From contig CBFDTD010000005.1 of the NCBI GenBank assembly GCA_965612745.1, forward strand, positions 498-64,497: a stretch of 64,000 nt of DNA, in the 5' to 3' direction. Shown in pieces: positions 1 to 59,796 of the stretch (positions within the stretch are counted from its first letter, which is position 1; every line of letters starts with the position of its first letter). This stretch comes from an uncultured bacterium (GTDB lineage: Bacteria > Chloroflexota > Anaerolineae > B4-G1). The notes beneath the pieces were generated by a model. That model saw only the letters and a program-made list of their open reading frames with translations. It was not told the DNA's origin and made no database searches. A program made the translations under genes and the position numbers.

Positions 1-74
1 GGGGCTGCGCCAGATCGCGCCGTTTCGGTATTTGTTGGAGTGATGCACTACACCGAATTGAGAAATCAACGAAT

Positions 75-869: not shown

Positions 870-880
870 GGGGGACACTA

Positions 881-950
881 TTCGTTCCTTTCCTAATTCG
901 TTCCTTTCCTAATTCGTTCCTTTCCTAATTCGCTCCTTTCCTAATTCGTT
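881..950. repeat. Tandem repeat, 16-bp unit TTCGTTCCTTTCCTAA, 4 copies plus a partial copy
   Basis: Units at 881, 897, 913 and 929 (one T>C), partial at 945; no spacers. Confidence 0.95.
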
Positions 951-995
951 GTAGTGCCTCTGGGTAGTGCCTCTGGCGAGGAACCCTTGAGAGCA

Positions 996-3797: not shown

Positions 3798-3846
3798 TTG
3801 TATCAATAGTTTAACCCCAAACCCTTTGGCAACTGGAGAGGGAGAA

Positions 3847-18536: not shown

Positions 18537-18544
18537 CGGTGACC

Positions 18545-27858: not shown

Positions 27859-27864
27859 TGCTCG

Positions 27865-28398: not shown

Positions 28399-28399
28399 A

Positions 28400-31713: not shown

Positions 31714-31718
31714 TGCCG

Positions 31719-34208: not shown

Positions 34209-34237
34209 ATTCTTGCTCCGTTGAGAAATGCGAAGGG

Positions 34238-34766: not shown

Positions 34767-35657
34767 CTATTCCGCCTTTCTCAAACGCTCTACTAACACG
34801 TCAATGGAAATCCTATTGTCTTCCTCTTTCTCGCCTGGGAACTGGGATTGTATCTCGCGCAGTTTTTCGATGGTCCTCTCCACATCGTACTCCAGCCTAT
34901 GGAAGTAGACTTGCGACTCATCGGTATCGTAAATCGCGTAGCAGGCGCGAGGTGGTGCGCCGTCGCGCGGCTGCCCCACGCTGCCCGGATTGACCAGCAA
35001 GGGGCGGTCGTCCACCTGAACCGGCTCCCTCGGTTTGGAGATTTTCTCCGTGTTGTCGTACTTCCGGGTCTCGACGACGCGGCGGAAGACGGTGGCGCGA
35101 TGAGTGTGGCCGAAGAAGCAGAGCGGCCGATCGTCCGGGAGGCTCAACCACGCTTCCTCCGCATCGGGTGTATCATGCAAGTAGTTCCCCTCCGTCCCGG
35201 TCGGCTCGCAGGGGCTGGCGTGCACCATCATCACGCCCTCTAAAGGATACTGGGCACTCGTCGGCAATTGAGCCAGCCAGGCCCGTTGATCGTCGGAGAG
35301 TTGTTCCAATGTCCACCGGTGGCTCAGGTCGGTCGCCGTGACGTACCTCTTTAACTCTGCCACCCGTGGGTCTTTAAGATCCACAATACCCGCCTGCACA
35401 CCCCAATCGCCGATCAACTGCTCCGGCTCCTGCGCTCCCGCGATCGCCAAGTCGTTGTTGCCGGATATAGCCACGTGGGGCCAACGATCGAACGCCTCCC
35501 GCAGGCGTTCCACACAGGCAGCCGGGTCGGGGCCGTAGACGACCACATCGCCCAGGAACCACAAACCGTCAATTCCCTGCTGCTCCGCGTGGGAAAGCAC
35601 AGCCTCCAATGCCTCCAGATTCCCATGAATGTCGGATAGAATAGCATAACGTGGCAT
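34767..35657 (-). CDS. Calcineurin-like metallophosphoesterase
   Basis: ILSDIHGN, LGDVVVYGP, GNND, HASP, FGHTH, NPGSVGQPRDG. Confidence 0.92.
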   Translation of the reverse strand: MPRYAILSDIHGNLEALEAVLSHAEQQGIDGLWFLGDVVVYGPDPAACVERLREAFDRWPHVAISGNNDLAIAGAQEPEQLIGDWGVQAGIVDLKDPRVAELKRYVTATDLSHRWTLEQLSDDQRAWLAQLPTSAQYPLEGVMMVHASPCEPTGTEGNYLHDTPDAEEAWLSLPDDRPLCFFGHTHRATVFRRVVETRKYDNTEKISKPREPVQVDDRPLLVNPGSVGQPRDGAPPRACYAIYDTDESQVYFHRLEYDVERTIEKLREIQSQFPGEKEEDNRISIDVLVERLRKAE

Positions 35658-43900: not shown

Positions 43901-46280
43901 CACTCCGACCATGCCGGAAAGCATGGACTCCTTCTAAAACCTCACTATGACGCGGGTCATACCGGCAAGCCTCTTCCAATGCCATAGCGGCACGAGTCAG
44001 AGCCTCGTTAAGACCCAGATCCGTTCTTCGCATCCATTCAACGGCCTGGTCTAGCAAGTCACTTGCAACCTGTTCCCGTTTCTGATCGATTGGGTGGAAT
44101 TCCCTGCGTGTCTTCTCCTCCAGTCCTTCCTGCTCCTCCTGGGAGAGGCCGAACTTGCGCAGTTCCTTTAACGTATCATCGGCTGTCTTTATCGCTTTCG
44201 CGTAGAGGCCGTCGTCGGCCTGCTGTTTAACCAACGTGATACGACACTCCAACCATAAATCCGCGAGAGGGACACCGTCCGGAGTGTACCGGAACCGCTC
44301 GCGCAGCAGCGTGGATAGCACACCGGCCTGTTCCACAAGGTCGTTCGCTTGCCGAGCGGATTGTAGTGTCTCCAAGAGTTCCTCATATCTCTTAGCCTGG
44401 TTATTATACTGTTCAAGATGCTCCTTGGCCTCTGAATCGTCCCGGCAATGCTCAACTACTTGCTCAAGCAACTCAATGGCTGCTGAGAAGCGGTTTTGTT
44501 CTGCCAAACGCTGGCTGCGCTGTTTGAGTCGCTCGATAGCCACACTCCTAAGCACTCTCGAGACCTTGGTCTCGGTCACAGCGGCCAACAGTTCCAGCGC
44601 CCTCTCTGCCCTCTCTGCTTCGATGAACTCGGCAGCCTGCAACCATATCTCAAGCCCTTCGTCGCCCGATCTTTCGGCTTGCAGGTCACGGAGGAGTTTG
44701 ATAATGTCAGCAAGGCTACCCGTCTGGAGTGCCGGTTGCAATGCCTCTGAGAGTTGTTTTCTCAACCGCTCGACGTGCTCCGCCCGCCGTCGGTACCCAT
44801 CCACTTGTCGCTCCAAAGCCCCCATCCATTGCGTACCGTATGAGGCGGCGAGACTCGTCCCATCCTCCTGGCTATGCCAAAGATTCCTCAACCCTGCGAA
44901 TCCACCCCTAATAGCCTCGGCCTGCTTCACACTTGGCCGTTGGTCACCTGCACTCAACTGAGCCAATACATCTACCTCTGCCGCCAGGGCCCTCAGTTCT
45001 ATTACACGGGGATAGTCCTGCAGCACTTCTCTCAGTAGCGCCTGAGTCTGCTGATAATCCCCGCCTCGCAACGCTGTCAGGGCAGGTTCCATCCGTCGCC
45101 ACAACCCTGGTTTCCTCACGGCTGCACGGTGGGCCAGCCACGCCCAGCGGACTTCGGGATCCTCTTGATACTTGCGTCTGGCCCAGTTGAGAAAGGCAAG
45201 TGCCGCGTCGTGCTGACCGGCCTGGTACGTCCAGAGCACCTGGTGAACGGCCTGGTCGTACCGTTGCTGATCTTCGTCAGTCAAACCCGCTCCCAGTCCC
45301 CAAGCAAGATCGTAGCAGTTCAGACAGATGTCCGCTGTCTCCGTACGAGCGCGGGCCAGGAGTGATGAGACCGGTGCTCCCCACAGATCTATCTGCTCCT
45401 TGATACGATCGAAGACTTCAGATGCCAGTGCCATTGGGCGAGCGTCCGGCACATTACGCAGCAGAAAGGCGGTGATCAACGCACGTGTGCCATACGTCAA
45501 TCCGTCCCAGTGCGTAGCCACTCTATCGTCACCAATGCTTGAGCCATCCACGTCGAAAGAAGTGCCCTGAAACTCGATCAACGCGCCCGTGAACAAGCGG
45601 TAGAGCGTCTGTCCCAAGATGGGCACTGTCTGATTTCGGAAGTCCTCTGGGCGTTCCCCCACGGTATTCCAGTCTATGAGAATCAATGAACCAGTTCGGG
45701 CGTCGTAGAATATGCTATCCGATTTGACAGTATCTGTCAGGATGGTCTTGCGCAGTACCACTGCCCTTTTTATGAAGTCTGCCAGTTGGAGTCCGACGGT
45801 AAGCCCCTGTAGTTCATCATCAAAAGGCGGCACATTGGTCAGTTGAACTCCTGGCGCCCACTCCAGGATCAGGATCGGTAGCATCTCTACCTGCTCAGGG
45901 CCAGCGATTACTCCAACGGCCTGCACTCTCTCTCGTTCGCGAATCGAAAGGCCGCTCAACTTGCGCAGCTGCTCCGCTTCGCGAAGGATCTCCTGACCAT
46001 ACTGCGGTACTTTCGGCACTTTGATAGCCACCCATCGTCCGCCTGCGGGTTCTCCGGGTAGAGAGGCCGGGATCAGGGGGCTATCCCATTCGCTGCTCAG
46101 CAAGTCAAGATACTCCTCGGGGGGGCGACTGACCACTCCGACCTCCGGTCTCAAGGGTTCTCCTGTTGGCCACTGAAATGCCTTCCAGACGACCGACTTC
46201 ACACCCGTTGTTATCTTCTGAAAGAGCAAGTAGTAGTGGCCAACCAGGAAGATGGCACGTAGGCGTTGCTCTGTGGGCAT
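40989..46280 (-). CDS. Ser/Thr kinase-like domain + TPR/helical region + TM + extracellular Ig-like domains
   Basis: ITTGVKSVVWKA, WVAIKVP, REAEQL, ILEWAPG, LTDTVKSDS, LIDWN; TM GVVASIATLILLFVFVG; NTGE Ig-like motifs. Confidence 0.75.
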   Translation of the reverse strand: MPTEQRLRAIFLVGHYYLLFQKITTGVKSVVWKAFQWPTGEPLRPEVGVVSRPPEEYLDLLSSEWDSPLIPASLPGEPAGGRWVAIKVPKVPQYGQEILREAEQLRKLSGLSIRERERVQAVGVIAGPEQVEMLPILILEWAPGVQLTNVPPFDDELQGLTVGLQLADFIKRAVVLRKTILTDTVKSDSIFYDARTGSLILIDWNTVGERPEDFRNQTVPILGQTLYRLFTGALIEFQGTSFDVDGSSIGDDRVATHWDGLTYGTRALITAFLLRNVPDARPMALASEVFDRIKEQIDLWGAPVSSLLARARTETADICLNCYDLAWGLGAGLTDEDQQRYDQAVHQVLWTYQAGQHDAALAFLNWARRKYQEDPEVRWAWLAHRAAVRKPGLWRRMEPALTALRGGDYQQTQALLREVLQDYPRVIELRALAAEVDVLAQLSAGDQRPSVKQAEAIRGGFAGLRNLWHSQEDGTSLAASYGTQWMGALERQVDGYRRRAEHVERLRKQLSEALQPALQTGSLADIIKLLRDLQAERSGDEGLEIWLQAAEFIEAERAERALELLAAVTETKVSRVLRSVAIERLKQRSQRLAEQNRFSAAIELLEQVVEHCRDDSEAKEHLEQYNNQAKRYEELLETLQSARQANDLVEQAGVLSTLLRERFRYTPDGVPLADLWLECRITLVKQQADDGLYAKAIKTADDTLKELRKFGLSQEEQEGLEEKTRREFHPIDQKREQVASDLLDQAVEWMRRTDLGLNEALTRAAMALEEACRYDPRHSEVLEGVHAFRHGRSALLHPEPDYGIATAELNRAAAWVWDELKMTVRPYTALAEIGAALAGLPDPETASPEDVARTIRMCDDLDARLERWDHTVPEKWRDTRLIELHRKLDRSVDEQRRRSHMVLNESLRGWLQNIAQADAALDYQETFARLNKILPVEQVERPAVEMERWVDPSLPQNRVQSEQVLNEWGRRVRTLYNLALAQAHLLRAEMDLWRGREDLIPARYKNARRAAEAAEKGEYAGPWPNDRPAQAGLRDEIRHLLQHLWVAAYKQVEKTGEVSAGLWLVHETAENSVRDLAWLSDQYLEHLDPAQAEEAFGLLLEAGLENRKRFISLLAPCGLTDCQRRLCTYAHAAKLVKQQRYKDALRLADLADRFEAEKDRRSELGRAVVEQMVMYWERVFDRLKEGQPLAQVLEDALIIRDGAAAEKQVDALGLDAALAQLDKRYHAAAEPAPTELRKVANQAFQALDEGDKKTFARKLARVPVAQWKELRQALEGVIKTKFLRLVSRFTDKGFVRQTLLVLKGHIGKVLRPARRAAEEFSGYNTEHDWKQVRRTAVRGVVASIATLILLFVFVGSAVVYAVSPDVRKAVAVRFAPSTVTPTPPPFPQGELTVGEGELREAGTVVWYQVSIENTGEVTATFEIHPTSDIPRGVFWMRDNSSPLEGWPRVTLAPRELRTFRLVVPHQPPASEPEHRSVWLRLVVEGQDNPIVRVEVTPPPEQLEITGWSLDRAEEEYVRQVHLQASGAFTPSITGQYGIACYDGDGKRRGDCTTLTVNAGGRGVFTCSLNEGAPGEWHVAVFPLRTDEQGGREPDQSRPFDGFPYEHPFVVREPHYGLTVTRPITYLFDPAKNVQAVGLRYEIRNTGEISDRFSVEFEPITNTERLSLTVMSPGTGLTYTLELTETTGPVPLFPREYPLAPCPDPSAPDCPVVHLEIWAYYPVAPRKEGERWLLEPPVTFDLILRPQDGKGKAVTEHVEVTEFP

Positions 46281-46299: not shown

Positions 46300-49200
46300 T
46301 CATCCCAGAAACGCTGGCTGCCCCTCAAGGCGGCGCAGCGCATCTTCGACAACCAGATGCATCACGATCCCCAGTTCCTGTTTTCGGGTGTCACGGTTTT
46401 CCTGGAGTGCTCTGGCCCGCTCCAGCGCCTGCCCTAACGTGACCATCGCCGCACGTCGTGCCTCACCGTTCGACGATCCTATACCTTTACCTTCCAGCGC
46501 CGCCTCCACCGTTTCTGCAAGGTCACCCTGTTCGGCAAGCACAAAGGTAACCGCCGCCTCCCATAACGATGGAGGCTCATCCCGTGCTTCGGTCAGCGGC
46601 GCCGGTTCCATCTCTGGCAGAGCCAGCACCATCTGCAGCAAGGGAGCACGACCGCCGCGCTCCACGCTGTTCACTCTGACCCACCCATAGGCATAAGCCA
46701 GCCAGAAGGCTCGGGCGCGTCGCTCGTCCTCCAGCGTCAGGCAGGTATATGGCGAAAAGAAGCGCAGCGCCAAACCGATCTCGGATAGCAGTCCCTCGTA
46801 GAGGACCGCGTTCGTCTCCGCCGGAAAGACTTGAAGGGCGGCTCGTTTCTGGCTTCTTATTTCACGATACGCCTCCCGCGCCTGAGACCAGGAAGGCAAC
46901 CCCCTTGTGCGCAATAGATCCAGCGAGGCCAGCGCGACACAGCGATGGGGATGCTGAATATGTGCCAGTTGCTCGCTGTGCACCTGCGCTACCGGAGCGC
47001 GGAGGTGTTGCAGAACCTGCTCGAAATGAGCGGACTGCCCGCCACCGGCAATGCCGACGAACCGATGGGCTTCACTGATCGGTTGCTCATAGGGCACTGT
47101 ACGGATCAACGGTGCCGAACCGGGCCCACACTCCTCCGCTATGGCCTGCGGTGCACACAGTTCGGCCAATACATCTGCTATCTGTAAGGAGCGCAACACA
47201 CTGCCATACGCCCTGCCTATGTCGAGCATCGCAGCCTCGGCCATTTCCGCGTCCGCATAATCTACCTCCCAGGGTTGGCTCCCGTACAGGGATAAACGCC
47301 ACGTGTTGTCATCGGCGTAGCGCCAGACGAACCGAGTACGCAGGTCTTCCTTCAACAGCGGCGCAATGTAGCGCCGATAGAGTGCTTCCTCAATCTCTAT
47401 ATCGTCCAGGTATTTTCGCACACAGATTGCCCGTCGGGCTTGGCGCCGCTCGGCCAGGGCCGCAGCACGCTCCTCAGCACGCACCTTGATCTGGGCCAAC
47501 ACGTCTTGCCAGCGTGCCAATGGCTCTCTCGTCCGCTGGACGATTTGTGACCACTCCTCGACGATCCGTGACCAGGCGGTGCACAAGCGCACCTCAATCT
47601 CGGCCCTCAAGCGTGACTGTTCGGCTATCAGGTATTCTGCCTGCAAGCGAACCAATTGTGGCTTTCTGAAAAGCGCTCGCCAGGAGAGCCACGCGCCCCC
47701 GGCTACGGCCAACGCCGCTACCCCGCCCAACAAGGTAGACAGAGTGGGCAAAGCCAAGCCGGCCAACCCCAGGCCGACAACAACTGCGCCGGCGGGGATC
47801 AAGCCAGATAGCAGGGCCCGCCGCAGTCGAGGGTGTCGCAGCCGGCTGCCCTCTGCCGCCTTCTGCAGCGCCTCGCGCACCTTCTGGGCCTGTGCTTCTT
47901 CCTCGCGCAGCGCTGCCTCTCGCCCCTGCACCACCGCGTTCACAAGGTCCTGATACGCAGCCACAACCTCCTCAAGAACTTGTAAGAAATCACAGCCAAC
48001 AACAGGGCCATACTCCTTCGGACTTTCATGCGTTGGATTTGGATTGAGCAACTGTGTCAGATGCTCTACCAACAGACGCTGGAAGATCACCCGCTGGCCT
48101 TCGGCGCAGGCCTGAAGATACGGTTCCAGTGCTGACAGACGCTCACGGACTTGTCCAACTTCATCGAATATTCTGGCCACGTCCTTCCCATAGTCCCCGG
48201 CACGTGCTTCTATGCTGGTTTGCACTGCCTCGAGCAGCCCGGTGCTCGCCAGCCCGCGCAGGACCGTGAGTGTCTCCTGCGTCGTTTCTTCTCCTGGGAA
48301 CGGAGACAGAAGCGCGGCCAGTTCGACGCTCATTGCGTTGGCCTGTGATATGGCCTGCTCGGGCGGCATCTCGACCCGTTGTGCCAGGTCACGGATCAGC
48401 GCCGTATTCGGAACTCCGCTCGGTGAGGCGGACTGGGACAGGAACGCGATGACCTGAGCGCGCGCCTCGGAGAGACCACCCTCCTGTTGCCCATCGAGCA
48501 TCTGCCCGACCAGGCGCAAAGCAACGGTTTCCACCAGATCCTTCACCGGAAGTATGTACGTGAAGACACCGAGGCTCTCATACAACGCCTCCTGCCGTTC
48601 ATACTGCCGCCGGTTCAGGCGCTCGCTCACCGCTTGTGCGACCACCTCCCATGCATTATGAAACGTTGGGTCTGCCAGCGCGACGATTACGTCCGCGATG
48701 GCAGGATACAGGCCCCACTCAAGCGGTATGCCACCCAGGCTCGGTTTGCCTTCCCGGTCGGTGCTGAAGAGGTAGCAGCGCTCAAACAACTTCCCCTTGC
48801 GCCAGGTGACCTCCTTGCCGTAAGAGATGGGATAGGCATGTTCGAACACCAACTGGAAGCGATCCAGTTCACGCCACGCGGCGGCGGCTGTACGCTGCAA
48901 TTTCACCATGGCGGCCAGGTCTATGCCCATAGAATGTGCTTCCGGCAAGACCAGTAGCCCGTGTACCACAAACGATGGGACCTCTAACGCCTGTGCTTGC
49001 CGCCGCACCAAATGCGCGATGTCGGCCAGTAAGCCGCTCCCTGTTGCACCGGCCAGCGAAGCGACGATATAAATCGTCAGTCGGTCATCAGGCTTCAGGC
49101 AGAACGCCTTCAACTCCGCCGCCAGACGTTCCTCCACCTTATGCCGATGGGCCACGAGTGCCAGGCGGCACAGCATCCGACGAAGCCCTCCGTCCTGCTG

Positions 49201-50832
49201 GCTATGGGAGTTAGGGAAACCCTCATCTGCCTGACCGAGCTGCGCAAACAAGCGGTGCACTGAAGCGTCAACAGGCAGGGATAGTGAATCGGCGGGCTCG
49301 GGATAGAGTGCTGCGGGCTCCGTATCTATCGCGAGCAGCCGCACAGTAGGTGGTAACTCGTCGCCGTACGCTTCGCGCAGCGTCTCGCGAAGTGTTTGTA
49401 AAACCCCTGCTCCTGTTCCCCCAAGACCGATCACCAGCGTGGGATTAAGCCGTGCGTCGAACTTGAAGCACGCAAGAGGAAGAGTAGGAGGAACCGATGG
49501 TTGCGGAATCGGCGCCCACCGGCCGGTATCCAGACCCGGTGCTGAGATCGCTCCGATCTGCGGGTGACGCCAGGCCTTGCGTGCCTGCTCTCTACGTCGC
49601 CACAACACCCACAGCAAGAGAGCCAAAAGCGGTAAGAGTAGCAGCAGCAAGCACACCCACCACGGCAATCCCAGCACTGTGCAGGGCCACGTGAGCCCTC
49701 CCAGACACAGCAGGCTGGAGATACAATCGTTGCTCAGCGGTTCGTCCGCACAGGGCGAAACAGTCGGCACCGGTATGGGCGTAGCGACAACCACATCAGT
49801 GACGATGAGGGTCGGACCGGGGCCGTGGGCGAGGCTGTACTGCTGGTCTCCACACAGGATGTAACTGACATCGGTTGACAGTGTGGATGGGAACTCACCG
49901 GCCCGTGTGGTGCGCACGCGAAAACTGAGAGTCTGCTGCTGTCCCGGAGCCAGCACGTCCAGTGTCCAGGTAATGTGATTTCCACTCACGATGCCCATGG
50001 GTGAGAGACTGTCGCTCACGAGTTCGAGCATCGCGTCATCGTAGATTGTGTGGAGTATAACGTTCGAAGCCTTCGCAGCCTCGATCTGTACCCGGATCGT
50101 TTCGTAAATTTCAACCAAATCCGCCGCTGTCGGCGCGTGATAGTAACACAGAGATGAGGACGCCAGGTTCTGCATCAACACCTGATCGGCATCGCTTCCC
50201 AGGCTGATCGTGTAGATGGCAATCCCTTGCTCCTTCGCCTGCTCCGCGCTTTGTTGGGCAGGCGTCCAGTCGCTTTGTCCATCGGACAGAAGCACGATGT
50301 TAGCCGTTGCCGACGGTCGCCGCGCCCCCCCACTCAGTACTCGCACGGCTTCCGAAAGCCCCGCTGCAATGTCGGTTCCATCTATCGTGGAAAGGCTCTC
50401 GATAGCCCGGCGAGCGACCTCCGCACGCTGTGTAAGCCCTTGCACAGTGAAGGCCGTGTCGGAGAACGCCACCACTGCCACCTGATCGGTGCTCAGGTCT
50501 ACATTGGCTATGAATTGCAGGGCAGCCCGCTGCGCAGCCGCCAGCTTGTCCTCGTCATCCATGCTGGTGGAGACGTCCATCACTAAGACGATATCGGCCT
50601 GTTGAGGCTCCGTCCCCATGCACGTTCCGGCCTCCTGCCCCGTCAGTGTGAACGTGATCCACGCTTCCTCCCCAACCTTCAATTCCGTCGGAGAGGCCGA
50701 CTGAGCGAGGACAACGGCCTCACCGGCCTCCTGAGCCGCACCATAGGCAACCGGCAGGCACAGGCTAAAAATGACAAGTAAGAAGACGCTGGCATACTGC
50801 CTCATATGACATATGGTGATCGGCATACACAT
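46300..50832 (-). CDS. vWA (extracellular) - TM - tubulin/FtsZ-like (Tubulin_2) fusion protein
   Basis: Signal peptide; DIVLVMDVSTSM MIDAS; LLSDG; TM; LVIGLGGTG, LLAIDT, ASLAGATGSG, RELD. Start may be 50805. Confidence 0.85.
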   Translation of the reverse strand: MCMPITICHMRQYASVFLLVIFSLCLPVAYGAAQEAGEAVVLAQSASPTELKVGEEAWITFTLTGQEAGTCMGTEPQQADIVLVMDVSTSMDDEDKLAAAQRAALQFIANVDLSTDQVAVVAFSDTAFTVQGLTQRAEVARRAIESLSTIDGTDIAAGLSEAVRVLSGGARRPSATANIVLLSDGQSDWTPAQQSAEQAKEQGIAIYTISLGSDADQVLMQNLASSSLCYYHAPTAADLVEIYETIRVQIEAAKASNVILHTIYDDAMLELVSDSLSPMGIVSGNHITWTLDVLAPGQQQTLSFRVRTTRAGEFPSTLSTDVSYILCGDQQYSLAHGPGPTLIVTDVVVATPIPVPTVSPCADEPLSNDCISSLLCLGGLTWPCTVLGLPWWVCLLLLLLPLLALLLWVLWRRREQARKAWRHPQIGAISAPGLDTGRWAPIPQPSVPPTLPLACFKFDARLNPTLVIGLGGTGAGVLQTLRETLREAYGDELPPTVRLLAIDTEPAALYPEPADSLSLPVDASVHRLFAQLGQADEGFPNSHSQQDGGLRRMLCRLALVAHRHKVEERLAAELKAFCLKPDDRLTIYIVASLAGATGSGLLADIAHLVRRQAQALEVPSFVVHGLLVLPEAHSMGIDLAAMVKLQRTAAAAWRELDRFQLVFEHAYPISYGKEVTWRKGKLFERCYLFSTDREGKPSLGGIPLEWGLYPAIADVIVALADPTFHNAWEVVAQAVSERLNRRQYERQEALYESLGVFTYILPVKDLVETVALRLVGQMLDGQQEGGLSEARAQVIAFLSQSASPSGVPNTALIRDLAQRVEMPPEQAISQANAMSVELAALLSPFPGEETTQETLTVLRGLASTGLLEAVQTSIEARAGDYGKDVARIFDEVGQVRERLSALEPYLQACAEGQRVIFQRLLVEHLTQLLNPNPTHESPKEYGPVVGCDFLQVLEEVVAAYQDLVNAVVQGREAALREEEAQAQKVREALQKAAEGSRLRHPRLRRALLSGLIPAGAVVVGLGLAGLALPTLSTLLGGVAALAVAGGAWLSWRALFRKPQLVRLQAEYLIAEQSRLRAEIEVRLCTAWSRIVEEWSQIVQRTREPLARWQDVLAQIKVRAEERAAALAERRQARRAICVRKYLDDIEIEEALYRRYIAPLLKEDLRTRFVWRYADDNTWRLSLYGSQPWEVDYADAEMAEAAMLDIGRAYGSVLRSLQIADVLAELCAPQAIAEECGPGSAPLIRTVPYEQPISEAHRFVGIAGGGQSAHFEQVLQHLRAPVAQVHSEQLAHIQHPHRCVALASLDLLRTRGLPSWSQAREAYREIRSQKRAALQVFPAETNAVLYEGLLSEIGLALRFFSPYTCLTLEDERRARAFWLAYAYGWVRVNSVERGGRAPLLQMVLALPEMEPAPLTEARDEPPSLWEAAVTFVLAEQGDLAETVEAALEGKGIGSSNGEARRAAMVTLGQALERARALQENRDTRKQELGIVMHLVVEDALRRLEGQPAFLG

Positions 50833-50863
50833 ATCACTTCACAGAAAACTGCTGCATGCCCTA

Positions 50864-50901
50864 GGATGGGCTGGCAAGTATGAGCACCTGCCAGCCCATC
50901 C
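50864..50901. other. Strong intergenic hairpin between the two tubulin-like genes
   Basis: GGATGGGCTGGCA-12 nt-TGCCAGCCCATCC, perfect 13-bp stem, no U-tract. Confidence 0.7.
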
Positions 50902-50911
50902 GAGAGGCCGA

Positions 50912-53900
50912 CTATACGGCAATCTCTTCCAATCGCTCGATCTCGTCCCAGAGAATCAGATGCATCACGGAGTAGAGATCCCGCGTAAGTTGGTCAGGGC
51001 GTTTGTCCTCATCCATCTGCTCGATGAAATCCAGACGGTGGTATGGCTCGATCTTGCTGCGAATATAACGTTCTAACCGTCGTACCAGTTGGCGATGCCC
51101 TCCTGCCTGGATACGATCGCCGGCGAATTCTCTCAGAACCTCCAGAATCTTTTCGGACAACTCGGCACGATATTGTTCGATGTAGCAGTCCTCGTTGTCA
51201 TCTAAGAATCGCTCCAGCCGCTCTCGGAGCACATCTTCGTCACCCCGCTTGACCCAGCGCTCGTTCTCGGCCACAAAGCGGCGGAAAGCGCCCGGCAGCA
51301 CCGCGTCACCTATTGAAGTCAGGATATCACTCCAGCCTTTCATGCGCTCCTTAAATTCGTCCACCACGGCCTCCCGTCCGCTGGTGATCGAATCCCGGCG
51401 TAGCAGAAGTGCACGGTCTACTCGCTCCGGTTCCACCCGGATATCCACTCCCGGTGTGACATCCGCAATCCGTTTGCGCCCCGTCTCTTGGTCAATGCGC
51501 GGATAGACAAACGTCGTCATGGCATCCAACAACCGAGTGTTGCCGGGTTCCGTCAGACGTATTACGAACGTCGGATCGTGCCGCCGGGTGCGATCCAGGC
51601 GCAATACATATTGATTCTTTCCGGGAGCGCTTGGCGCCTCTTCGATGCGCACCAGATCATAGAACATCGCGAGGGTGAAACGACGCGCCATCTCCTTGTC
51701 CTCCAGCAATGCAACGAGCGCGGGTGAGAGCAACCGCTGTGTTTGATGCAACGGGTACTTTTTCAAACGTTGCTCGTACCAACTGGCGTTGACCTCGGCG
51801 GGAAAGCAGTGCAGCAACCGCCGGTCACCGGTGTATTCGCTGTATGCCCTGGCGGCGATCTGATATGGAGTCGTCTTGTTGCCGGCCAGCACATCGGTGG
51901 TGGACAGCACGATGCAACGATGTTTGTTGCTGAGACCAATGATCTGGTTTTCTCTCGCATTTGGGGCGCTGGCTGCTAGTTCTGCCCCCAACGCGTTGAA
52001 ATACGGCACGTGCACACCTTGATTCACGCACACGAAGTTACGCTGTCCGGCCCGTCCCTGCTCACGCGGGTCGTAGGAGATCAACGCGCCTGAGTTGTCG
52101 AGCATCTCCTTGGCCGCGCGCGCAGGGGTCTTGAGATCCTCCAGGCGACCGGCCACGGTCTCATTCTGGATATCCATAAAGTAGGGGCGCATCCTGTTAA
52201 CCAGGAAACGCGCGTTGATGGCGGTTGCGGGCTCCTCCCGTGAGGGCTGAACCGCCAGTGCCTCGTTGCCGTACAGCAAATCTAACCGGAAGCCATCCTC
52301 GCCACTGCTCAGCGTCCAGCGGAACCGGCGCAGAATCTCTTTCCACTTGTCTTCATCCAGATACTTCCGGTACAACTCGTCCTCATATTTGTCGTCGGTC
52401 AGGTACTCATAGACCTTGATGCGGCGCTGTTCCTCGCGACGACGCTGTAACTGCTCCTGCTCTTCAACCAGCCGCCGGTACACCCCTTGCTCTCCACTGC
52501 CCACCGGCCCACCTAACGCCAGGATACCGATCCAATGGTCAACCTGTGCCTTTGCATTTTGTGTAACCGCTTTGAAGGACTCGGCCAGGTCAATTACTGC
52601 CCGTAGCAGCACCTCCTGACGCTCCAGATCAAGCAGATAGTTCTCGGCGGCAATGTACTCATCTTGAGAACGTACTGCCGTGTGGCGTAGCCGGTCAAGC
52701 AACCCGGTGGCATCACGGTTGTCGAGCATGACCTGCTTTGTCACCGCCACGTCATCGCGGGCCAGGGCCACTTCGTTATCGGCCGTCCAGACCTTGACCA
52801 CTTCGCGCATGAAACTCGCGAACTCGTCGAAACTCTGAATGACCCATCCCAGCCATTCCTGCACGTAGGGCAACTTCCCCTGTTTGGCGATCAGCGGATC
52901 GTCAGTGACGCCATTGAGCAGATCGGTCATTCTCTCTGCCAGTAGGTTGCGGAAACGTTGCACGTTGCGGTTCTTGTAGGTTTCCAATCCCTTCTGAAGT
53001 TCACCGGGCACTTTGCGTCCGCCGGCTTCCTCCCGGCCAAGCAGTCGTTCGCGGACTCTCTGCACGTCCCGAGCGATCCGATCGGCGGCGGAGTGGAAAT
53101 CATCTCGATAGACTTTGCTGTTCTGCACTTCGGCGATCATTGAGATTTCCATTGCCTTCTGGATGTCATTGGCCGTCTGGGCGATGACATCGTCTTGCTC
53201 GACCGGCAGCACCCAGTTGATTAACTCAACTCCCAGTGCTGCAATGTCGCGTACATATTCAGGGTCTCGAGTGCGGCCGGAGCCCAGCACCTCTACAACC
53301 TGCTGGTTAAAGTGCAGGTTCAACGTGCCGGCCCGGGACTTGTTCATTGAAAGAAAATCAATTGCCTCCTCGCGTGGCGGGTTACGGTTCTCACGGTTTC
53401 CCGCGCTACTGACGCTCAAAGCACCGGCGGCATCCTCCTCGATGGTGAGCAGCCGGTCTCGCAGAAATTCCAGTGCGAGTTTGTATGTGTTGCGTTCGAT
53501 AATATCCACCACCGGCAGGATAAAGGTATAGGTACCCAGGCTGCTGTACAGGGCCGTCCCTGCTTCCTGAGGAGATCTGGCGATCTCCTGCTGCGCCTTT
53601 GCAATCTCGTTGGCTACGTTCTTGTAATGCTGTGCGAAGGCATCACCGGTTGCCGGGTCCAGCAGCGCCGTCATACACTCTGCTACGGCCGGAAAGACCC
53701 CGAATTTGGGAGTCACCCCTTTCAAGCTCAACCTGGGGCGCACAGAGTCGATCAAGTAGCAACTGTCAAACAGTTTGCTGGTGTGGATGCTATGGTACAC
53801 GGCTAAAGGCTCCCTGTGCTCCTCCGTGTAGTAGATAGGGTACTCACGATCGAAGACCAACGAGAAACGGTCCAGTTCCCGCATAGCAGCGAAGGCGTTG

Positions 53901-54604
53901 GGCATAATGTCCTGGATGTCAATCACTGGCTCAAACGTGTTCTGAAGCACGATGAAGCCCCGGATGGCAAAGTGGATTCCGGCGCGTTCGGCCAGTTTGC
54001 GGGCAATGTGCGCGATGTCAATGAACATGCCGGAGCCGGTACCACCGGCAATTGAGCACGTGATGTAAATCTCAACCGGCTGCTGCCTTCCCGTGGCATT
54101 GAGCACCTCGGTGATGGCCGTTTCAATCTTACCCAGAATCTTGGGGGTTCCGGTGGCAAGATCGTAGAACACCGCCATCCGGCCAAACGGCCGGCGTTGG
54201 CCAGCACCCTTGGAGATTTCATACGCATCGTCGGGGTAATAATCCTGGTAGATATCACCCTGTAGCCACGAACCGATGTGTGGGAAGGTGATGCGCTTGC
54301 CGGTCTGGGGATCTGTCAGTTTACCTGCAATACCCTGGCAGATCTTTTTTATGTTACCTCCCAGATAGACGAATTCACCCGTACTCAAGGTCACGTTGCC
54401 GACCTGGGCCCGTTCCTCCTCCAATTTACTCCCCGCTTCAACGGCGGCCTCCGTCTTCTCACCAGTCGTGTCGAAGGCGAGTAGCCTGACCATGGGGGGA
54501 ACCTCGCCGTAGGTGTCCAGCAGGTTCTTCTTGAGATAAGTGAGCACCCACTGCCCGGTGCCTCCCAGGCCGATCACAACAGCAGGATTTGCAACTGCAG
54601 CCAT
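50912..54604 (-). CDS. Tubulin/FtsZ-like (Tubulin_2 family) protein with long helical C-terminus
   Basis: VVIGLGGTG, LLAFDT, GAGQRRPFGR, CSIAGGTGSGMFID, NAFAAMRELD; RBS GGAGGAGG. Confidence 0.9.
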   Translation of the reverse strand: MAAVANPAVVIGLGGTGQWVLTYLKKNLLDTYGEVPPMVRLLAFDTTGEKTEAAVEAGSKLEEERAQVGNVTLSTGEFVYLGGNIKKICQGIAGKLTDPQTGKRITFPHIGSWLQGDIYQDYYPDDAYEISKGAGQRRPFGRMAVFYDLATGTPKILGKIETAITEVLNATGRQQPVEIYITCSIAGGTGSGMFIDIAHIARKLAERAGIHFAIRGFIVLQNTFEPVIDIQDIMPNAFAAMRELDRFSLVFDREYPIYYTEEHREPLAVYHSIHTSKLFDSCYLIDSVRPRLSLKGVTPKFGVFPAVAECMTALLDPATGDAFAQHYKNVANEIAKAQQEIARSPQEAGTALYSSLGTYTFILPVVDIIERNTYKLALEFLRDRLLTIEEDAAGALSVSSAGNRENRNPPREEAIDFLSMNKSRAGTLNLHFNQQVVEVLGSGRTRDPEYVRDIAALGVELINWVLPVEQDDVIAQTANDIQKAMEISMIAEVQNSKVYRDDFHSAADRIARDVQRVRERLLGREEAGGRKVPGELQKGLETYKNRNVQRFRNLLAERMTDLLNGVTDDPLIAKQGKLPYVQEWLGWVIQSFDEFASFMREVVKVWTADNEVALARDDVAVTKQVMLDNRDATGLLDRLRHTAVRSQDEYIAAENYLLDLERQEVLLRAVIDLAESFKAVTQNAKAQVDHWIGILALGGPVGSGEQGVYRRLVEEQEQLQRRREEQRRIKVYEYLTDDKYEDELYRKYLDEDKWKEILRRFRWTLSSGEDGFRLDLLYGNEALAVQPSREEPATAINARFLVNRMRPYFMDIQNETVAGRLEDLKTPARAAKEMLDNSGALISYDPREQGRAGQRNFVCVNQGVHVPYFNALGAELAASAPNARENQIIGLSNKHRCIVLSTTDVLAGNKTTPYQIAARAYSEYTGDRRLLHCFPAEVNASWYEQRLKKYPLHQTQRLLSPALVALLEDKEMARRFTLAMFYDLVRIEEAPSAPGKNQYVLRLDRTRRHDPTFVIRLTEPGNTRLLDAMTTFVYPRIDQETGRKRIADVTPGVDIRVEPERVDRALLLRRDSITSGREAVVDEFKERMKGWSDILTSIGDAVLPGAFRRFVAENERWVKRGDEDVLRERLERFLDDNEDCYIEQYRAELSEKILEVLREFAGDRIQAGGHRQLVRRLERYIRSKIEPYHRLDFIEQMDEDKRPDQLTRDLYSVMHLILWDEIERLEEIAV

Positions 54605-54614
54605 TTTCCTCCTC

Positions 54615-57542
54615 CTATATTTCGTATCGGAATTGGTAGCGTTCGTCTTCGTTCGTGCGTTGTCCTTTGACTATCAATATATTCTGCCCTCTTTTTGCAT
54701 ACATTGTACCGTGGGCAACCTCCTTCCCCTTTAGATTATAGGCCCAAATCTCCACACCTTCGATAAGTTGATCGCCACGCCTTCCTTTCTTGGCCACACG
54801 CCGAACCTTGATGCGCCTCAATTGCAGCGAGGCGCCGATCTGCTTTCCTTTCAATACCATCCAATGACGGCGCTTTGTCCTGCTCAGCAAGTCATCATCA
54901 ATGACTCTACCGCCGATCACTTCTGCGATCAGTTTACCTTTAACCGCCGGCAGGCGCCAATTCAGGATTGTACGCCCGATCGGGTACGCTATCGAGAGCG
55001 CTACGACCGCGATTCCGAACCACCACAGGATGGGATACAGGAGGGGGTCATTGCGCTGAAACACTACTGTGCGTGGTGGCCATGCACCCTCGGTAGGCAC
55101 ACCGCCGCGAATCGCCCCATCAAGGCGCACGGTGGCTGTGTACTGCCCCGGCTCGACCAGGTCGGGTACATCGGCCCCAAACACCTGCCCTTTTCCAGAT
55201 ACATCTTGCAGGTTAACGTGCCATGCCTGCCCGTCTGGACCTTCGATCTCTAAGGTGAATAGCTGATCAGGGGGAGTGATGAAGAATTCCTCTGCACGGG
55301 CAGGTTGGTTTCCGTGCCGCAGCTCGACACGTACGGGCATAGGCTGTCTCGCAAAGGGCAGGAGTGGCGGCAAATACCAGTAATGAAGTGGGTAGGTCGG
55401 CTCAGGCTCTTCCTCATCGGGTGACAGTACAAAGAAGTAGGGCAAGTTAGGGCTGACATTGATCTCTCGATGGGCTACAAAGGCCGCCTGAACCGGTTCG
55501 CCCGCTCTTAAGTTCGTATACCCGATAATCTCCAGCGAGTGTGGTGACGGATCCTCGAGCACCCAGTTTACTGTGGAAAAGTAGCGGCCTGGTTGCTGAG
55601 CAGGTGAGAGCGCTGCTTCTTCAACAGAACCATCAGGACGTATCAACCTGACCACTATATCCAGCGGATAGTTCGGATCAACTTCCACAGGCTCATCGTT
55701 GGAGTCGCGAAGTTCCAACTCCACCATACGCAACGGAGCCAGAGCCGGATAGTTGGGCCCTGGTGAGTAGACGTACACGTTCTCGGTTGTCTCGAAAACC
55801 GTCTGATACTCGAACAACTCTGCGTCAGCATCATCCCGCAACGCCACAGTGAGAGAATACGGTCCCGTTTCACCGAGGAAGAACGGTTCGTCAACCCGGT
55901 AGTTACCGCTATCCCACTGTGGAGATGGCAGCTCCGCTATCTCCCCTGAGGGGGTCTGTGCGCTTAGATCCACAGACCAAGGTGTGTCTTCCGGCACACC
56001 AATCGGATTCCCATCAGGATCAACAAACCCTAAAACCAACTCTGTGACGGGGCCATAACGCAGGTATGGCTGACCAGGAGCAAGGATTTCCACCTGCGGC
56101 GCATATACCGGAATCTGAAAGTTACTTTCGAACAGAGGGAGCACAAGTGAATCCTGAGTGAATGTGAGACAACGTCGTAATTCGGGAGTAGGTGTCAGGA
56201 CTGTAGAGACCTGCACCCTTAGAGTATAGGGACCAGGAATCAACGGCAACACGGGGATGACCGAGATATACTCGCCTATACCCGTCTGCTGAAAGTCAAT
56301 CCTCTGATGAGAACCATCGGGCATGGTTAAATGTCCTTTCATCACAATAGGATATCCGGGCAGCTCATCTATTGGCTTCCCGTTCGAGTCCAGCAATCCG
56401 AGTTCGAAGCGCATAGGAAGATTTTCAGGATGTGGGCCCGAGGGATTCTTTATCCACAGCTGATTGAAAATGGGCTGCACAAAAACATCCACCTGCCCTG
56501 TTCCCTCACGAGCACTCTGCCAGCAACCGGGGTCAGGGTTGGAAATCTCGTACATCTCATCCCGCGTGTTCCCCTCAGGTGTCTCTGTGCAAGTGACGTT
56601 GATTACATCTGCATCCCATTTCCTTTTATCGTAACAGTCAACATTGACCAGAGTAGCATCGGGGCGACGTAGGGTTATCCGTGCTTCTGGGTTATACTTG
56701 AAGAAACTAAAGGAAACAGAGCGTGCATACGGTTGGATAAAATGATAACCCAGTACCGAGACCTGGCAATAGTCCGCAGGCTTATCAGGATTCAGAAACG
56801 GGCACACCAGCCGTACTATCTCTCGATTCATCTCCTCCACAGAAGAAACGCGCACGGCGTGGCCCGGACCAGCGACGTCCTCCCAGCGGCTTTTGACCTG
56901 AGGCCAGTACCGGTTAGCATCGTCAATGCCTATTATGTACAGGGTGAAGAGTGAAAGTTCTGCATCACAATAGTCTGTCAGCTCCTCGAAGTAGTCGGCA
57001 TAAGTGTAGGGATTCTCTACTCGCTCAGCTCTTGCGTCGTAGGGACCTCCGTCGGTAATTAGCACAATCAAGCGCTGGCGAGTATCGCTTTCGAGTTCCG
57101 CATCAGTCGCAGCCGGAAACACCTGGCGGACGAGTTCTAAGGCGGATATGAAACTTGTGTTCCCCAGATTCTCGGCGACAATGGCATTCTTGGCATCCGA
57201 AATAATATCCGCATCCTCGAGTGAGGTTAGAGGTACTAATATATGTGTTTTGCCTGGAGAGCCGAAGCCGACGACGACAACTCGATTGGTGCGTTCAGGG
57301 TGGACAGAATTTCCATCGAACGCCATGTAGTCTATGAGATACTGAGCGGTTTGGACACGCCGCTCCGTAGGATCAGTAGCCCTATATCCGGCCGATCCAC
57401 TCATGCTGCCCGATTGGTCCAAAAGGATGATCAGGTCAACACCTGGAGATGGCGGAGCCTGGGCTCCTGCAATTGGTAGGCCCGCCGTGGAGAAGGTCAC
57501 GAGAGCCAGCACGAACAGGAATGCTAATGATTTGAAGCGCAT
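54615..57542 (-). CDS. Secreted vWA domain protein with Ig-like repeats, TM and basic cytoplasmic tail
   Basis: Signal peptide MRFKSLAF..; DLIILLDQSGSM MIDAS; TDP..R; LITDG; TM YPILWWFGIAVVALSIA; RBS GGGAGG. Confidence 0.85.
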   Translation of the reverse strand: MRFKSLAFLFVLALVTFSTAGLPIAGAQAPPSPGVDLIILLDQSGSMSGSAGYRATDPTERRVQTAQYLIDYMAFDGNSVHPERTNRVVVVGFGSPGKTHILVPLTSLEDADIISDAKNAIVAENLGNTSFISALELVRQVFPAATDAELESDTRQRLIVLITDGGPYDARAERVENPYTYADYFEELTDYCDAELSLFTLYIIGIDDANRYWPQVKSRWEDVAGPGHAVRVSSVEEMNREIVRLVCPFLNPDKPADYCQVSVLGYHFIQPYARSVSFSFFKYNPEARITLRRPDATLVNVDCYDKRKWDADVINVTCTETPEGNTRDEMYEISNPDPGCWQSAREGTGQVDVFVQPIFNQLWIKNPSGPHPENLPMRFELGLLDSNGKPIDELPGYPIVMKGHLTMPDGSHQRIDFQQTGIGEYISVIPVLPLIPGPYTLRVQVSTVLTPTPELRRCLTFTQDSLVLPLFESNFQIPVYAPQVEILAPGQPYLRYGPVTELVLGFVDPDGNPIGVPEDTPWSVDLSAQTPSGEIAELPSPQWDSGNYRVDEPFFLGETGPYSLTVALRDDADAELFEYQTVFETTENVYVYSPGPNYPALAPLRMVELELRDSNDEPVEVDPNYPLDIVVRLIRPDGSVEEAALSPAQQPGRYFSTVNWVLEDPSPHSLEIIGYTNLRAGEPVQAAFVAHREINVSPNLPYFFVLSPDEEEPEPTYPLHYWYLPPLLPFARQPMPVRVELRHGNQPARAEEFFITPPDQLFTLEIEGPDGQAWHVNLQDVSGKGQVFGADVPDLVEPGQYTATVRLDGAIRGGVPTEGAWPPRTVVFQRNDPLLYPILWWFGIAVVALSIAYPIGRTILNWRLPAVKGKLIAEVIGGRVIDDDLLSRTKRRHWMVLKGKQIGASLQLRRIKVRRVAKKGRRGDQLIEGVEIWAYNLKGKEVAHGTMYAKRGQNILIVKGQRTNEDERYQFRYEI

Positions 57543-57689
57543 GTTCAAGACCTCCCTACGGAGAGTGTATTGCAACGCCTTGTGAAACTGGGCATATTGG
57601 AAGAAACGCGGGTTCGCTCTGGGCTTCGCACTGTATCAGTACAAAGGGATGCTCCATACAAAGAGATGCTCCATTGAAACGCGAGTGGT

Positions 57690-59733: not shown

Positions 59734-59796
59734 TCCCATCTCACGTTTCACGTTTGACGTTTCACATTTCACGTCTCACATCTCGCGCATCACATT
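59734..59796. repeat. Heptamer repeat array (TCACGTT-like x9)
   Basis: tcccatc tcacgtt tcacgtt tgacgtt tcacatt tcacgtc tcacatc tcgcgca tcacatt. Confidence 0.85.

Follow-up and report, generated by a model that had tools for sequence, protein, structure and literature searches.

A 64,000-nucleotide stretch of contig CBFDTD010000005.1 (hereafter, the window), from the 3.76-Mb, 235-contig genome assembly of an uncultured bacterium of the phylum Chloroflexota, contains a run of large open reading frames (ORFs) on the minus strand, including two adjacent genes for tubulin-like proteins, designated here TubA and TubB. The two genes are part of a six-gene cassette, and their best explanation is an ancient division of labour between two members of the FtsZl1 branch of the tubulin/FtsZ superfamily. 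The pair is real and conserved, and represents a variant of the already known FtsZl1 family. In the coordinates of the window, used throughout, the two genes are:

50912..54604, minus strand: TubA, soluble FtsZl1/Tubulin_2 protein of 1230 residues (PF13809 match, intact loops, AlphaFold2 (AF2) model)
46300..50832, minus strand: TubB, receptor-like paralog of 1510 residues (Pfam and BLASTP matches, hydropathy, motifs, AF2 model)

Paralogy and nucleotide-binding loops

Both proteins score well above the curated cut-off (27 bits) of the Pfam family Tubulin_2 (PF13809), TubA with 143.2 bits (E = 1.6e-41, residues 9-381) and TubB with 100 bits (E = 2.1e-28, residues 466-779), and a genome-wide profile search found no other PF13809 genes. 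Compared directly by BLASTP, they produce three collinear matches, ~930 residues in total: TubB 463-504 with TubA 6-46 (62% identity, E = 2e-10), TubB 587-1004 with TubA 179-645 (28% identity, E = 6e-38) and TubB 1061-1387 with TubA 644-987 (29% identity, E = 4e-25). This similarity is far above chance, and the two proteins are paralogs. Pfam and BLASTP thus agree with the preliminary description of this DNA, which had proposed a paralogous pair from the sequence of the two ORFs; the motif pairs that it listed (YSSLGTYTFILPV/YESLGVFTYILPV, HRCIVLS/HRCVALA and FPAEVNA/FPAETNA) are all found in them. Motifs common to both paralogs include YSSLG..ILPV, HRC and FPAExNAxxYE with its invariant Glu residues.

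The same description called TubA canonical, which holds within FtsZl1 and fails against the Tubulin/FtsZ family PF00091, where the two paralogs score 16.9 (TubA) and 17.3 bits, under the cut-off of 33 bits. The genome has a separate true FtsZ, its sole FtsZ_C match lying on another contig (C36). When the TubA family was compared with 27 FtsZ sequences by profile-profile comparison (hhalign), the G-box alone was aligned (27 columns, probability 7.8%). Identification of TubA or TubB as the canonical cell-division FtsZ was rejected on the PF00091 scores and the location of FtsZ_C, and the six-gene module is distinct from cell-division FtsZ. A profile of 34 TubA homologs retrieved no sequence relatives in the PDB below E = 0.1, and searches against NCBIfam gave no match for TubA and sub-cut-off vWA matches for TubB.

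The two paralogs differ in their nucleotide-binding loops. TubA has T1 GLGGTGQW, a T3-like GAGQRRPFGRM and T4 AGGTGSG. Residues G12/G14/G15/G17, G133/R138/G141/R142 and S184/G187/G188/T189/G190/G192 are invariant in 106 aligned TubA homologs, down to 28% identity, and at the family level the loops GLGGTGQW, GAGQxRxFGRM and AGGTG[SA]G are invariant in all 34 homologs used for motif comparison. In the TubB of the window, T1 reads GLGGTGAG, T4 reads AGATGSG and the T3 motif is lost; GGTGSG and GAGQRRPFGR in TubA, against GATGSG and no GAGQ in TubB, had already been pointed out correctly. Relatives of TubB were collected by an exhaustive search of 1.84 billion cluster representatives, with a yield of 1276 at E up to 0.001; the best-scoring 21 (E up to 5e-117) are TubB-type. 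Neither GGTG[SA]G nor GAGxxR occurs in the window TubB, in any of 13 TubB orthologs or in any of 20 TubB-type representatives (clustered at 50% identity). In the 13 orthologs T3 is gone, T1 includes the variants GQMG, GEMG and GTAG, and T4 appears as AEGYASG, ADATESG, AGMTGSA, PGEAEAA or SDPFASG. TubA thus has the T1 and T4 loops used to assign proteins to FtsZl1, whereas the TubB clade does not, which makes TubB a degenerate rather than a typical family member. TubB also diverges faster than TubA in the same loci, with 32-50% versus 48-73% identity to the window proteins. Judging by these loops, we take TubB to be a pseudo-GTPase, with weak nucleotide binding as the most that can be expected of it. 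Since GGTG[SA]G and GAGxxR are missing throughout its clade, TubB more probably serves as an anchor, template or regulator of the pseudo-GTPase type than as a GTPase on a par with TubA in a co-polymer.

In neither 34 nor 106 homologs does the stretch from the putative core helix to the following strand (TubA 344-351) contain a conserved T7-type acidic residue. Three residues further along TubA, H932, E937 and E944, are invariant in the 106 homologs, and D904 is another invariant position; E937 and E944 lie in the FPAExNAxxYE motif common to TubB, and are candidate T7-type acids.

Some TubA homologs have additional domains. Three of them (P0008, P0020 and P0040; 45-66% identity, 1654-1791 residues) are fused to nSTAND1 (PF20703) or AAA_22, and others carry PF09851 or zinc-ribbon (PF13240) domains; the nSTAND1 fusions are a possible link between FtsZl1 and STAND-type signalling. 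In many FtsZl1 relatives of 1700-2360 residues (P0166, P0171, P0183, P0188, P0194, P0250 and others) the tubulin-like domain starts at residue 770-1665, so large N-terminal fusions are common in the family.

Membrane architecture and predicted fold

TubB, and not TubA, has features of a membrane receptor, the most prominent of which are:

50104..50595, minus strand: vWA domain of TubB, residues 80-243, with the metal-ion-dependent adhesion site (MIDAS) DVSTS, predicted extracellular (PF00092, E = 3.7e-21)
49591..49671, minus strand: transmembrane (TM) helix of TubB, residues ~388-414, followed by WRRREQARK (hydropathy peak 2.89)
47668..47826, minus strand: hydrophobic helical hairpin of TubB, residues ~1003-1055 (hydropathy, AF2 model, orthologs)

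The N-terminus of TubB is signal-peptide-like (MRQYASVFLLVIFSLCLPVAYG/AAQ) according to the hydropathy scan and the sequence itself, and the vWA domain is placed between it and the TM helix. The protein also has a weakly matching DUF11-like beta domain (E = 1e-3) and a Cys-rich juxtamembrane stretch, conserved among orthologs, as is the TM region LPWWVCLLLLLL. The hairpin is present in all seven aligned orthologs, has basic flanks (RLRHPRLRR ... WRALFRKP) and has no counterpart in TubA, where residues 645 and 644 abut in the BLASTP alignment; the hydropathy scan found no hydrophobic segments in TubA. According to the positive-inside rule, the positive charges after the TM helix and beside the hairpin place the tubulin-like domain in the cytoplasm and the vWA domain outside, and the hairpin may dip into the membrane from the cytoplasmic side. 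The earlier picture of a TubB fused behind an extracellular vWA domain and a TM helix, with an extra hydrophobic hairpin, is borne out by Pfam, hydropathy and the AF2 model alike, and the tubulin-like domain is predicted to be cytoplasmic rather than extracellular.

The ectodomain is the variable part of the protein. Seventeen TubB-type representatives are 1462-1573 residues long; 14 of them were matched as one stretch, with ~410-465 residues before the match, and in the other three Tubulin_2 starts at residue 461-480. Twelve of the 17 have a vWA ectodomain and five have a PD40 beta-propeller instead. A sensor or receptor is expected to show just this combination of an exchangeable ectodomain and an unchanging cytoplasmic body.

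To compare the paralogs with known structures we used AF2 models of TubA residues 1-1190 (alignment of 106 rows; predicted local distance difference test (pLDDT) 91.4, predicted template modelling score (pTM) 0.81) and of TubB residues 440-1510 (pLDDT 90.1, pTM 0.80). In the TubB model, pLDDT drops below 50 only at model residues 96-107, approximately where T3 is expected. The models suggest the following domain layout:

53447..54604, minus strand: TubA residues 1-386, predicted nucleotide-binding domain, core helix and first strand of the second domain (AF2, Foldseek)
52049..53446, minus strand: TubA residues ~387-852, predicted mostly helical stalk inside the tubulin fold, boundaries approximate (DSSP of the AF2 model, VIA-align)
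51719..52048, minus strand: TubA residues ~853-962, beta-alpha segment with HRCIVLS and FPAEVNA, putative completion of the second domain (AF2, VIA-align)
48478..49446, minus strand: TubB residues ~463-785, tubulin-like nucleotide-binding-type domain (PF13809, motifs, model)
46747..47073, minus strand: TubB residues ~1254-1362, with HRCVALA and FPAETNA, putative second tubulin domain (model 815-913, VIA-align 23..923)

In a Foldseek search of the PDB with the TubA model, tubulin, FtsZ, CetZ and TubZ were the best matches (probability 1.00, E ~2e-3). VIA-align, for which the ranges given are the first and last aligned residues, superimposed TubA on CetZ with Z = 23.6 (314 of 342 residues aligned, rmsd 4.0) and on beta- and gamma-tubulins with Z ~21 (340-350 residues aligned). 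On the TubA side these alignments run from residue 5 to 953-963 with 308-350 residues aligned, and on the side of the known structure they extend up to residue 354 (CetZ) or 417-432 (tubulins). For TubB, the values were Z = 26.2 with CetZ 3zid_B (326 residues aligned, rmsd 7.4), Z = 24.5 with CetZ1 4b46 (306 aligned, rmsd 3.9) and Z = 23-24 with tubulins, over model residues 23 to 888-945. Long helices occupy residues ~400-850 of TubA and 350-700 of the TubB model, and the two helices of the TubB hairpin (model 564-588 and 590-616) are found at the tip of this stalk, between helices 504-555 and 620-695. The segment that follows the stalk in TubA, 853-962, has strands at 853-860, 886-890 and 896-907, plus helices. 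Just ~55 residues separate the putative core helix from the long helical region, and nearly whole CetZ and tubulin chains are aligned; hence TubA 853-962 (TubB ~1254-1362) would have to complete the second domain. The models thus suggest a complete two-domain tubulin fold split by a helical stalk of ~470 residues, and the long C-terminal similarity of the paralogs mentioned in the preliminary description appears to be the remainder of this fold. Pfam searches with TubA 840-1000 and TubB 1240-1400, as sequence support for a second tubulin domain, returned nothing relevant.

CetZ, alpha/beta/gamma-tubulin and BtubA/B are the best structural matches of both models (Z 21-26, 306-350 residues aligned). 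At the same time, the predicted structures differ from these proteins in their huge helical insertion, in the membrane anchoring and ectodomain and in having no identified T7 catalytic residue, and sequence identity is 8-19%.

Recurrence of the pair and its gene cassette

The cassette has the order vWA986-TubA-TubB-p1763-TPR1767-PPase296, with gaps of 10, 79, 19, 10 and 17 nucleotides, and is followed by a gap of 513 nucleotides. We examined nine related loci, coming from a Thermoflexales metagenome-assembled genome (MAG; G401), a Candidatus Aquidulcis MAG and seven metagenome contigs, and in these the gene order is vWA986-TubA-TubB-p1763-like-(TPR giant). The TubA and TubB genes are neighbours in 8/8 loci with both positions on the contig, vWA986 lies upstream of TubA in 7/7 loci reaching that position, and a p1763-like gene lies downstream of TubB in the 7/7 that reach that far. 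At the level of DNA, near-identical sequence to 46300-54604 (at least half of the sampled words) occurs in marine sediment, sediment and hydrothermal-vent metagenomes of several studies; no RNA datasets are listed among the runs holding this 8.3-kb stretch.

We also surveyed the phylum more broadly. PF13809 was detected in 41 of 401 sampled Chloroflexota genomes, some of the hits being weak FtsZ cross-matches, and 34 loci were examined. In 12 of these 34 loci, the gene after a soluble GGTGSG-containing FtsZl1 encodes a protein of 838-1190 residues with two adjacent hydrophobic segments in its middle; a large downstream protein with at least one hydrophobic or TM segment is found in 15, and a two-TM receptor-like protein upstream, with vWA where checked, in about 15. 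Full-length searches with hidden Markov models missed most of the degenerate partners, and phmmer comparisons within each locus, also with filters off, linked none of them to their neighbours; this method proved too insensitive and was replaced by hhalign. A profile of 13 downstream partners then matched the profile of their 13 upstream GGTGSG neighbours with a probability of 96.75% (E = 3e-10, 286 columns), the G-box being aligned to a degenerate stretch, and matched the TubB clade with a probability of 96.8% over 585 columns through the hairpin region. The match of the distant hairpin partners to the TubA family of the window was weak (probability 18%, E = 0.0013). On these profile matches, we regard an active FtsZl1 with a degenerate membrane-inserted paralog as an old and recurrent arrangement across Chloroflexota lineages, and the clade of the window as the version in which the degenerate partner has, by its sequence, also gained an ectodomain and a TM helix.

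A different layout is seen in loci L041-L049, each of which has a single FtsZl1 of ~1220-1400 residues with an intact GGTGAG and a mid-protein hydrophobic hairpin of its own, and no separate degenerate partner was seen there. In six of them a two-TM protein of ~870-900 residues follows directly, with vWA matches in 3/3 scanned (2 of them sub-threshold).

The other members of the cassette are:

54615..57575, minus strand: vWA986, surface receptor-like protein, probable true start M12 (VWA_2 E = 1.4e-10, MIDAS, hydropathy)
40989..46280, minus strand: p1763, giant membrane protein with a kinase-like N-terminus (ortholog profile, hydropathy)
35675..40978, minus strand: TPR1767, giant TPR/helical protein (TPR families in Pfam, hydropathy)
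34767..35657, minus strand: PPase296, calcineurin-like metallophosphoesterase, last gene of the cassette (Metallophos_2, E = 5.7e-21)

vWA986, which ends 10 nucleotides before TubA, has an N-terminal signal or TM segment, a beta-rich ectodomain of ~650 residues, a TM helix at ~844-871 and a 115-residue cytoplasmic tail conserved in seven orthologs. An FHA-like nature of this tail was considered and rejected, as there is no Pfam match and no FHA signature residues are conserved in the seven orthologs. In p1763, a kinase-like domain at ~75-230 (VAIK Lys87, Glu101, LTDTVK Asp183 and a DWG-like IDWN) precedes a long helical region, a TM helix at ~1334-1366 and an ectodomain of ~400 residues. A profile of nine p1763 orthologs matches CK2 alpha (E = 1.2e-8) from VAIK via the LTDxLK catalytic loop to DWG; K87, E101 and D183 are invariant in the orthologs, and a DFG-type Asp is present in 7/9. 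Pfam gave sub-threshold matches only (ABC1, APH), and a protein-language-model look-up pointed to Pkinase clusters (0.95). In two of the related loci (L004 and L008) the kinase-like domain is internal and two p1763-like giants follow TubB.

TPR1767 has one TM helix (~1621-1647) and an ectodomain of ~120 residues, with orthologs in loci L003, L006, L007, L008 and L009; BLASTP detected no paralogy between p1763 and TPR1767. In the Thermoflexales MAG, an ortholog of PPase296 (54% identity) stands directly after the TPR giant. All members of the cassette except TubA and the phosphatase are predicted to span the membrane. The association of such families with vWA, kinase and phosphatase genes, mentioned in the preliminary description, holds in the cassette, being supported by Pfam, the p1763 profile and synteny with the Thermoflexales MAG. 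Promoter and terminator scans at the ends of the cassette were uninformative, and PADLOC gave no match for any cassette protein.

Beyond the 513-nucleotide gap, a second vWA-centred set occupies 27058-34253 on the minus strand, where GC content falls to 0.48 (30001-32000). It consists of vWA844 (two TMs), AAA473 (AAA_22/AAA_16-like), p633 (~8 hydrophobic segments) and the two-TM protein p266. The MIDAS DxSxS sites of the three vWA proteins are DVSTS in TubB (residue 86), DQSGS in vWA986 (residue 53) and DNSPS in vWA844 (residue 63). None of the four genes is conserved after the phosphatase in the Thermoflexales MAG, and we therefore treat them as outside the core cassette. The region is flanked by a NACHT-HEAT-FGE-sulfatase gene (24236-27034, minus strand) and a TPR-CHAT gene (59754-63119, plus strand), both conflict-type architectures of multicellular bacteria; neither keeps its place beside the cassette in the same MAG, the only genome checked for this. 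Further away, an 868-residue ORF (18545-21151, minus strand) combines the RNA polymerase alpha C-terminal domain (two stretches) with sigma-70 region 4 and HARE-HTH, and is adjoined by an ORF with weak similarity to TGT (17535-18815) and one with a PIN domain (21230-23098). The segment 75-14339 resembles an accessory or conflict-type gene island. It encodes a PDDEXK_3 nuclease, an nSTAND1/AAA_22 NTPase (954-3797) and a lamin-tail/CotH-kinase/beta-helix protein (3778-7344), as well as a HerA/FtsK-like ATPase (7918-9141) that precedes two proteins, of 372 and 1363 residues, without assigned function.

Possible roles of TubA and TubB

FtsZl1 genes in neighbourhoods with vWA, kinase, GTPase and OmpA genes were described in 2010 (Makarova & Koonin, PMC2875224). 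The locus studied here resembles those operons in its Pfam match, the long protein with a helical C-terminal region, the vWA membrane protein encoded directly upstream and the kinase-type gene, and, as in that account, the family occurs beside a normal FtsZ and is uncharacterised. The latter agrees with the preliminary description, which had called such families largely uncharacterised, and with our full-text searches of the open literature (subscription-only papers lay outside their coverage), which turned up neither experimental nor structural work on FtsZl1/Tubulin_2, nor any account of a vWA-TM-tubulin fusion or a degenerate partner. The supplementary tables of PMC2875224 label the gene after FtsZl1 B1, B7, B8, 'coiled-coil' or similar, and in the accessible parts of that paper it is not labelled a paralog, whereas the corresponding gene here encodes a degenerate paralog that a TM helix connects to an extracellular vWA domain. 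The same parts report that neither T6-H7 nor the C-terminal domain of tubulin was recognised in FtsZl1; by contrast, our models suggest that the second tubulin domain is present and displaced by the ~470-residue stalk. In a later study, as far as its accessible text goes, the Tubulin_2 group was put aside as divergent (Santana-Molina et al. 2023, PMC9871819). A further parallel is provided by the GAP1-N2 DO-GTPase systems of Firmicutes, which have two tubulin-coiled-coil genes and two vWA genes, one of the latter with its vWA domain outside the cell, and for which regulated membrane-proximal assembly was proposed (Kaur et al. 2020, PMC7159879). These systems are enriched in multicellular bacteria, and the paper, in its accessible text, names Chloroflexi for GAP1-N2 neighbourhoods and confines the tubulin theme to Firmicutes and Actinobacteria. 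The cassette likewise has two tubulin-domain genes and two vWA domains, one extracellular (TubA, TubB, vWA986 and the vWA domain of TubB). In contrast to GAP1-N2 systems as described there, one vWA domain is fused to a degenerate tubulin paralog, and a kinase-like giant, a TPR giant and a metallophosphatase serve as partners. Neither DO-GTPase nor GAP1 nor FNIII-repeat domains were reported when 24 window proteins were scanned with Pfam, a scan in which the presence of the corresponding models was unverified and the giants have long unassigned regions.

From the homology, motifs, synteny and predicted topology and fold described above, we infer TubA-TubB binding, polymerisation, the direction of the signal and the role of the system as follows. 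TubA would be the soluble GTP-competent subunit. The ectodomain of TubB, a MIDAS-bearing vWA domain here and a PD40 propeller in some orthologs, would face outward, and its cytoplasmic part would be a full-length copy of TubA minus the GTP loops, pinned to the membrane by the N-terminal TM helix and the stalk-tip hairpin. As a membrane-bound template, anchor or regulator, TubB may recruit TubA and control its GTP-dependent self-assembly. The trigger would be a ligand of the surface vWA domains of TubB and vWA986, the response would be tuned by the kinase-like p1763 and the metallophosphatase, and the six genes would form one self-contained membrane-spanning module for envelope-linked conflict or containment, or for membrane remodelling. 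Clues to a conflict role are the patchy distribution, the swapping of ectodomains, the nSTAND1 fusions of TubA homologs and the conflict-type genes of the window; the missing synteny of those genes in the Thermoflexales MAG and the absence of PADLOC matches speak against it. The core of this account is that TubB, degenerate and anchored twice, serves as a receptor or scaffold by which GTP-competent TubA is recruited or templated at the membrane's inner face; we are about as ready to accept this as to doubt it.

Tubulin paralogs provide a functional analogy for such a pair: alpha- and beta-tubulin have unequal nucleotide sites, and gamma-tubulin is a non-polymerising paralog that acts as a template. 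In integrins, an ectodomain of the MIDAS vWA/I type sits on a single-pass receptor that is linked to a cytoskeleton-type protein inside the cell, and bacterial dynamin-like proteins have a hydrophobic membrane 'paddle' at the tip of the helical stalk of a GTPase-family protein. TubB can be likened to the former in its ectodomain and to the latter in its stalk-tip hairpin; unlike in either, the cytoskeleton-type domain would reside within the receptor polypeptide itself, and there is no homology beyond vWA. A more specific proposal along these lines is an integrin-like outside-in link, in which a ligand bound by the exchangeable ectodomain (vWA or PD40) clusters or re-orients TubB, held flat on the bilayer by its TM helix and hairpin, so that its nucleotide-free body templates TubA assembly by gamma-tubulin-like nucleation, with the kinase and the phosphatase as a gate. 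We put this proposal forward tentatively, as one that is rather doubtful in its full form.

Other explanations have to be considered against the reading of TubB as a membrane-bound recruiter or template. One of them, corresponding to the co-polymer of the preliminary description, is an obligate heterodimer of the alpha/beta-tubulin kind, in which both proteins would assemble 1:1 into a co-polymer attached to the membrane and TubB would be the subunit that does not exchange its nucleotide or has none. This would suit two full-length paralogs with the same predicted two-domain fold, strictly adjacent in all eight loci and sharing the core motifs YSSLG..ILPV, HRC and FPAExNAxxYE with its invariant Glu, and tubulin dimers with one less active site are established (alpha/beta-tubulin, BtubA/B). 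However, alpha-tubulin retains its GTP site, whereas T1, T3 and T4 of TubB drift freely among orthologs, and fixation at two points of the membrane is a geometry better for an anchor or nucleator than for every second subunit of a filament. We consider the heterodimer unlikely. A non-polymerising system, with TubA as a GTP-dependent signalling or chaperone-like switch and TubB, the vWA receptor and the giants as membrane effectors or regulators, can be likened to the NTP-thresholded conflict systems of multicellular bacteria under kinase/phosphatase control. The nSTAND1 fusions of close TubA homologs, the wealth of conflict-type genes in the window (nSTAND1, NACHT-FGE-sulfatase, TPR-CHAT, PIN), the occurrence in only 41 of 401 genomes of the phylum and the missing conserved T7-type acidic residue all fit a switch, as do the reports that T6-H7 was not identified and FtsZl1 filament formation was left open (PMC2875224, accessible parts) and that tubulin and vWA gene sets occur within such systems (PMC7159879). 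Against this, the predicted fold appears to hold both tubulin domains, all characterised superfamily members form filaments (authors' reply in PMC2875224), the conflict-type neighbours show no synteny with the cassette in the Thermoflexales MAG, PADLOC had no matches for cassette proteins, and the Pfam scan of 24 window proteins reported neither DO-GTPase nor GAP1. In our estimate, a pure switch is no likelier than the heterodimer.

The view that TubB is a decaying duplicate without a TubA-linked role, its pairing being a historical accident, would account for the degenerate nucleotide motifs and the faster evolution compared to TubA, but is hardly credible. Intact TubB-type ORFs are found in at least 21 clusters at 50% identity, with lengths of 1462-1573 residues in 17; many residues outside the GTP loops are invariant; the fold is confidently predicted; the hairpin, the juxtamembrane Cys motif and the gene order are conserved; and the active-plus-degenerate arrangement is found in distant lineages as well.

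A number of points weigh against the recruiter/template reading itself. No physical interaction or polymerisation of any FtsZl1 protein was found in print or obtained here; complex prediction with TubA 1-400 and TubB 454-839, run with alignments on parts of a discontinuous fold and without controls, scored 0.00 and gives no answer. The TubB of the window, with its GLGGTG and AGATGSG, is the least degenerate of its clade and may retain some nucleotide binding, and since no conserved T7-type acid was located in either paralog, the hydrolysis of GTP in a filament is putative even for TubA. TM, signal and hairpin calls come from a Kyte-Doolittle hydropathy scan and not from a dedicated predictor. 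The alignment behind the TubB model has 47 rows, 30 of which are not TubB-type orthologs, and the split fold was deduced from predicted models and first and last aligned residues, without coordinates or per-residue alignments. The catalytic-loop Asn of p1763 is variable and absent from most orthologs, and its kinase-like domain could be a pseudokinase. Finally, the genes past the phosphatase are not conserved in the Thermoflexales MAG, so the neighbourhood is a weak functional clue.

FtsZl1 is one of the tubulin/FtsZ superfamily's most divergent branches, and the TubA/TubB pair bears on several questions about it. The vWA-TM-tubulin fusion is a Rosetta-stone link that would fix the topology debated in the review of PMC2875224, placing vWA on the outer side and the tubulin-like domain on the inner side. 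That a GTP-competent protein is strictly paired with a motif-less, membrane-inserted one, repeatedly across Chloroflexota lineages, suggests a division of labour comparable to that of tubulin paralogs. The putative displaced second tubulin domain bears on the capacity of FtsZl1 to form protofilaments and, if the complete stalk-split fold is true, it would answer the question raised in 2010 of how this branch could polymerise. If the proposed role of TubB is also true, the cassette would represent a bacterial device coupling a receptor to a cytoskeleton, possibly for conflict or containment in filamentous bacteria.

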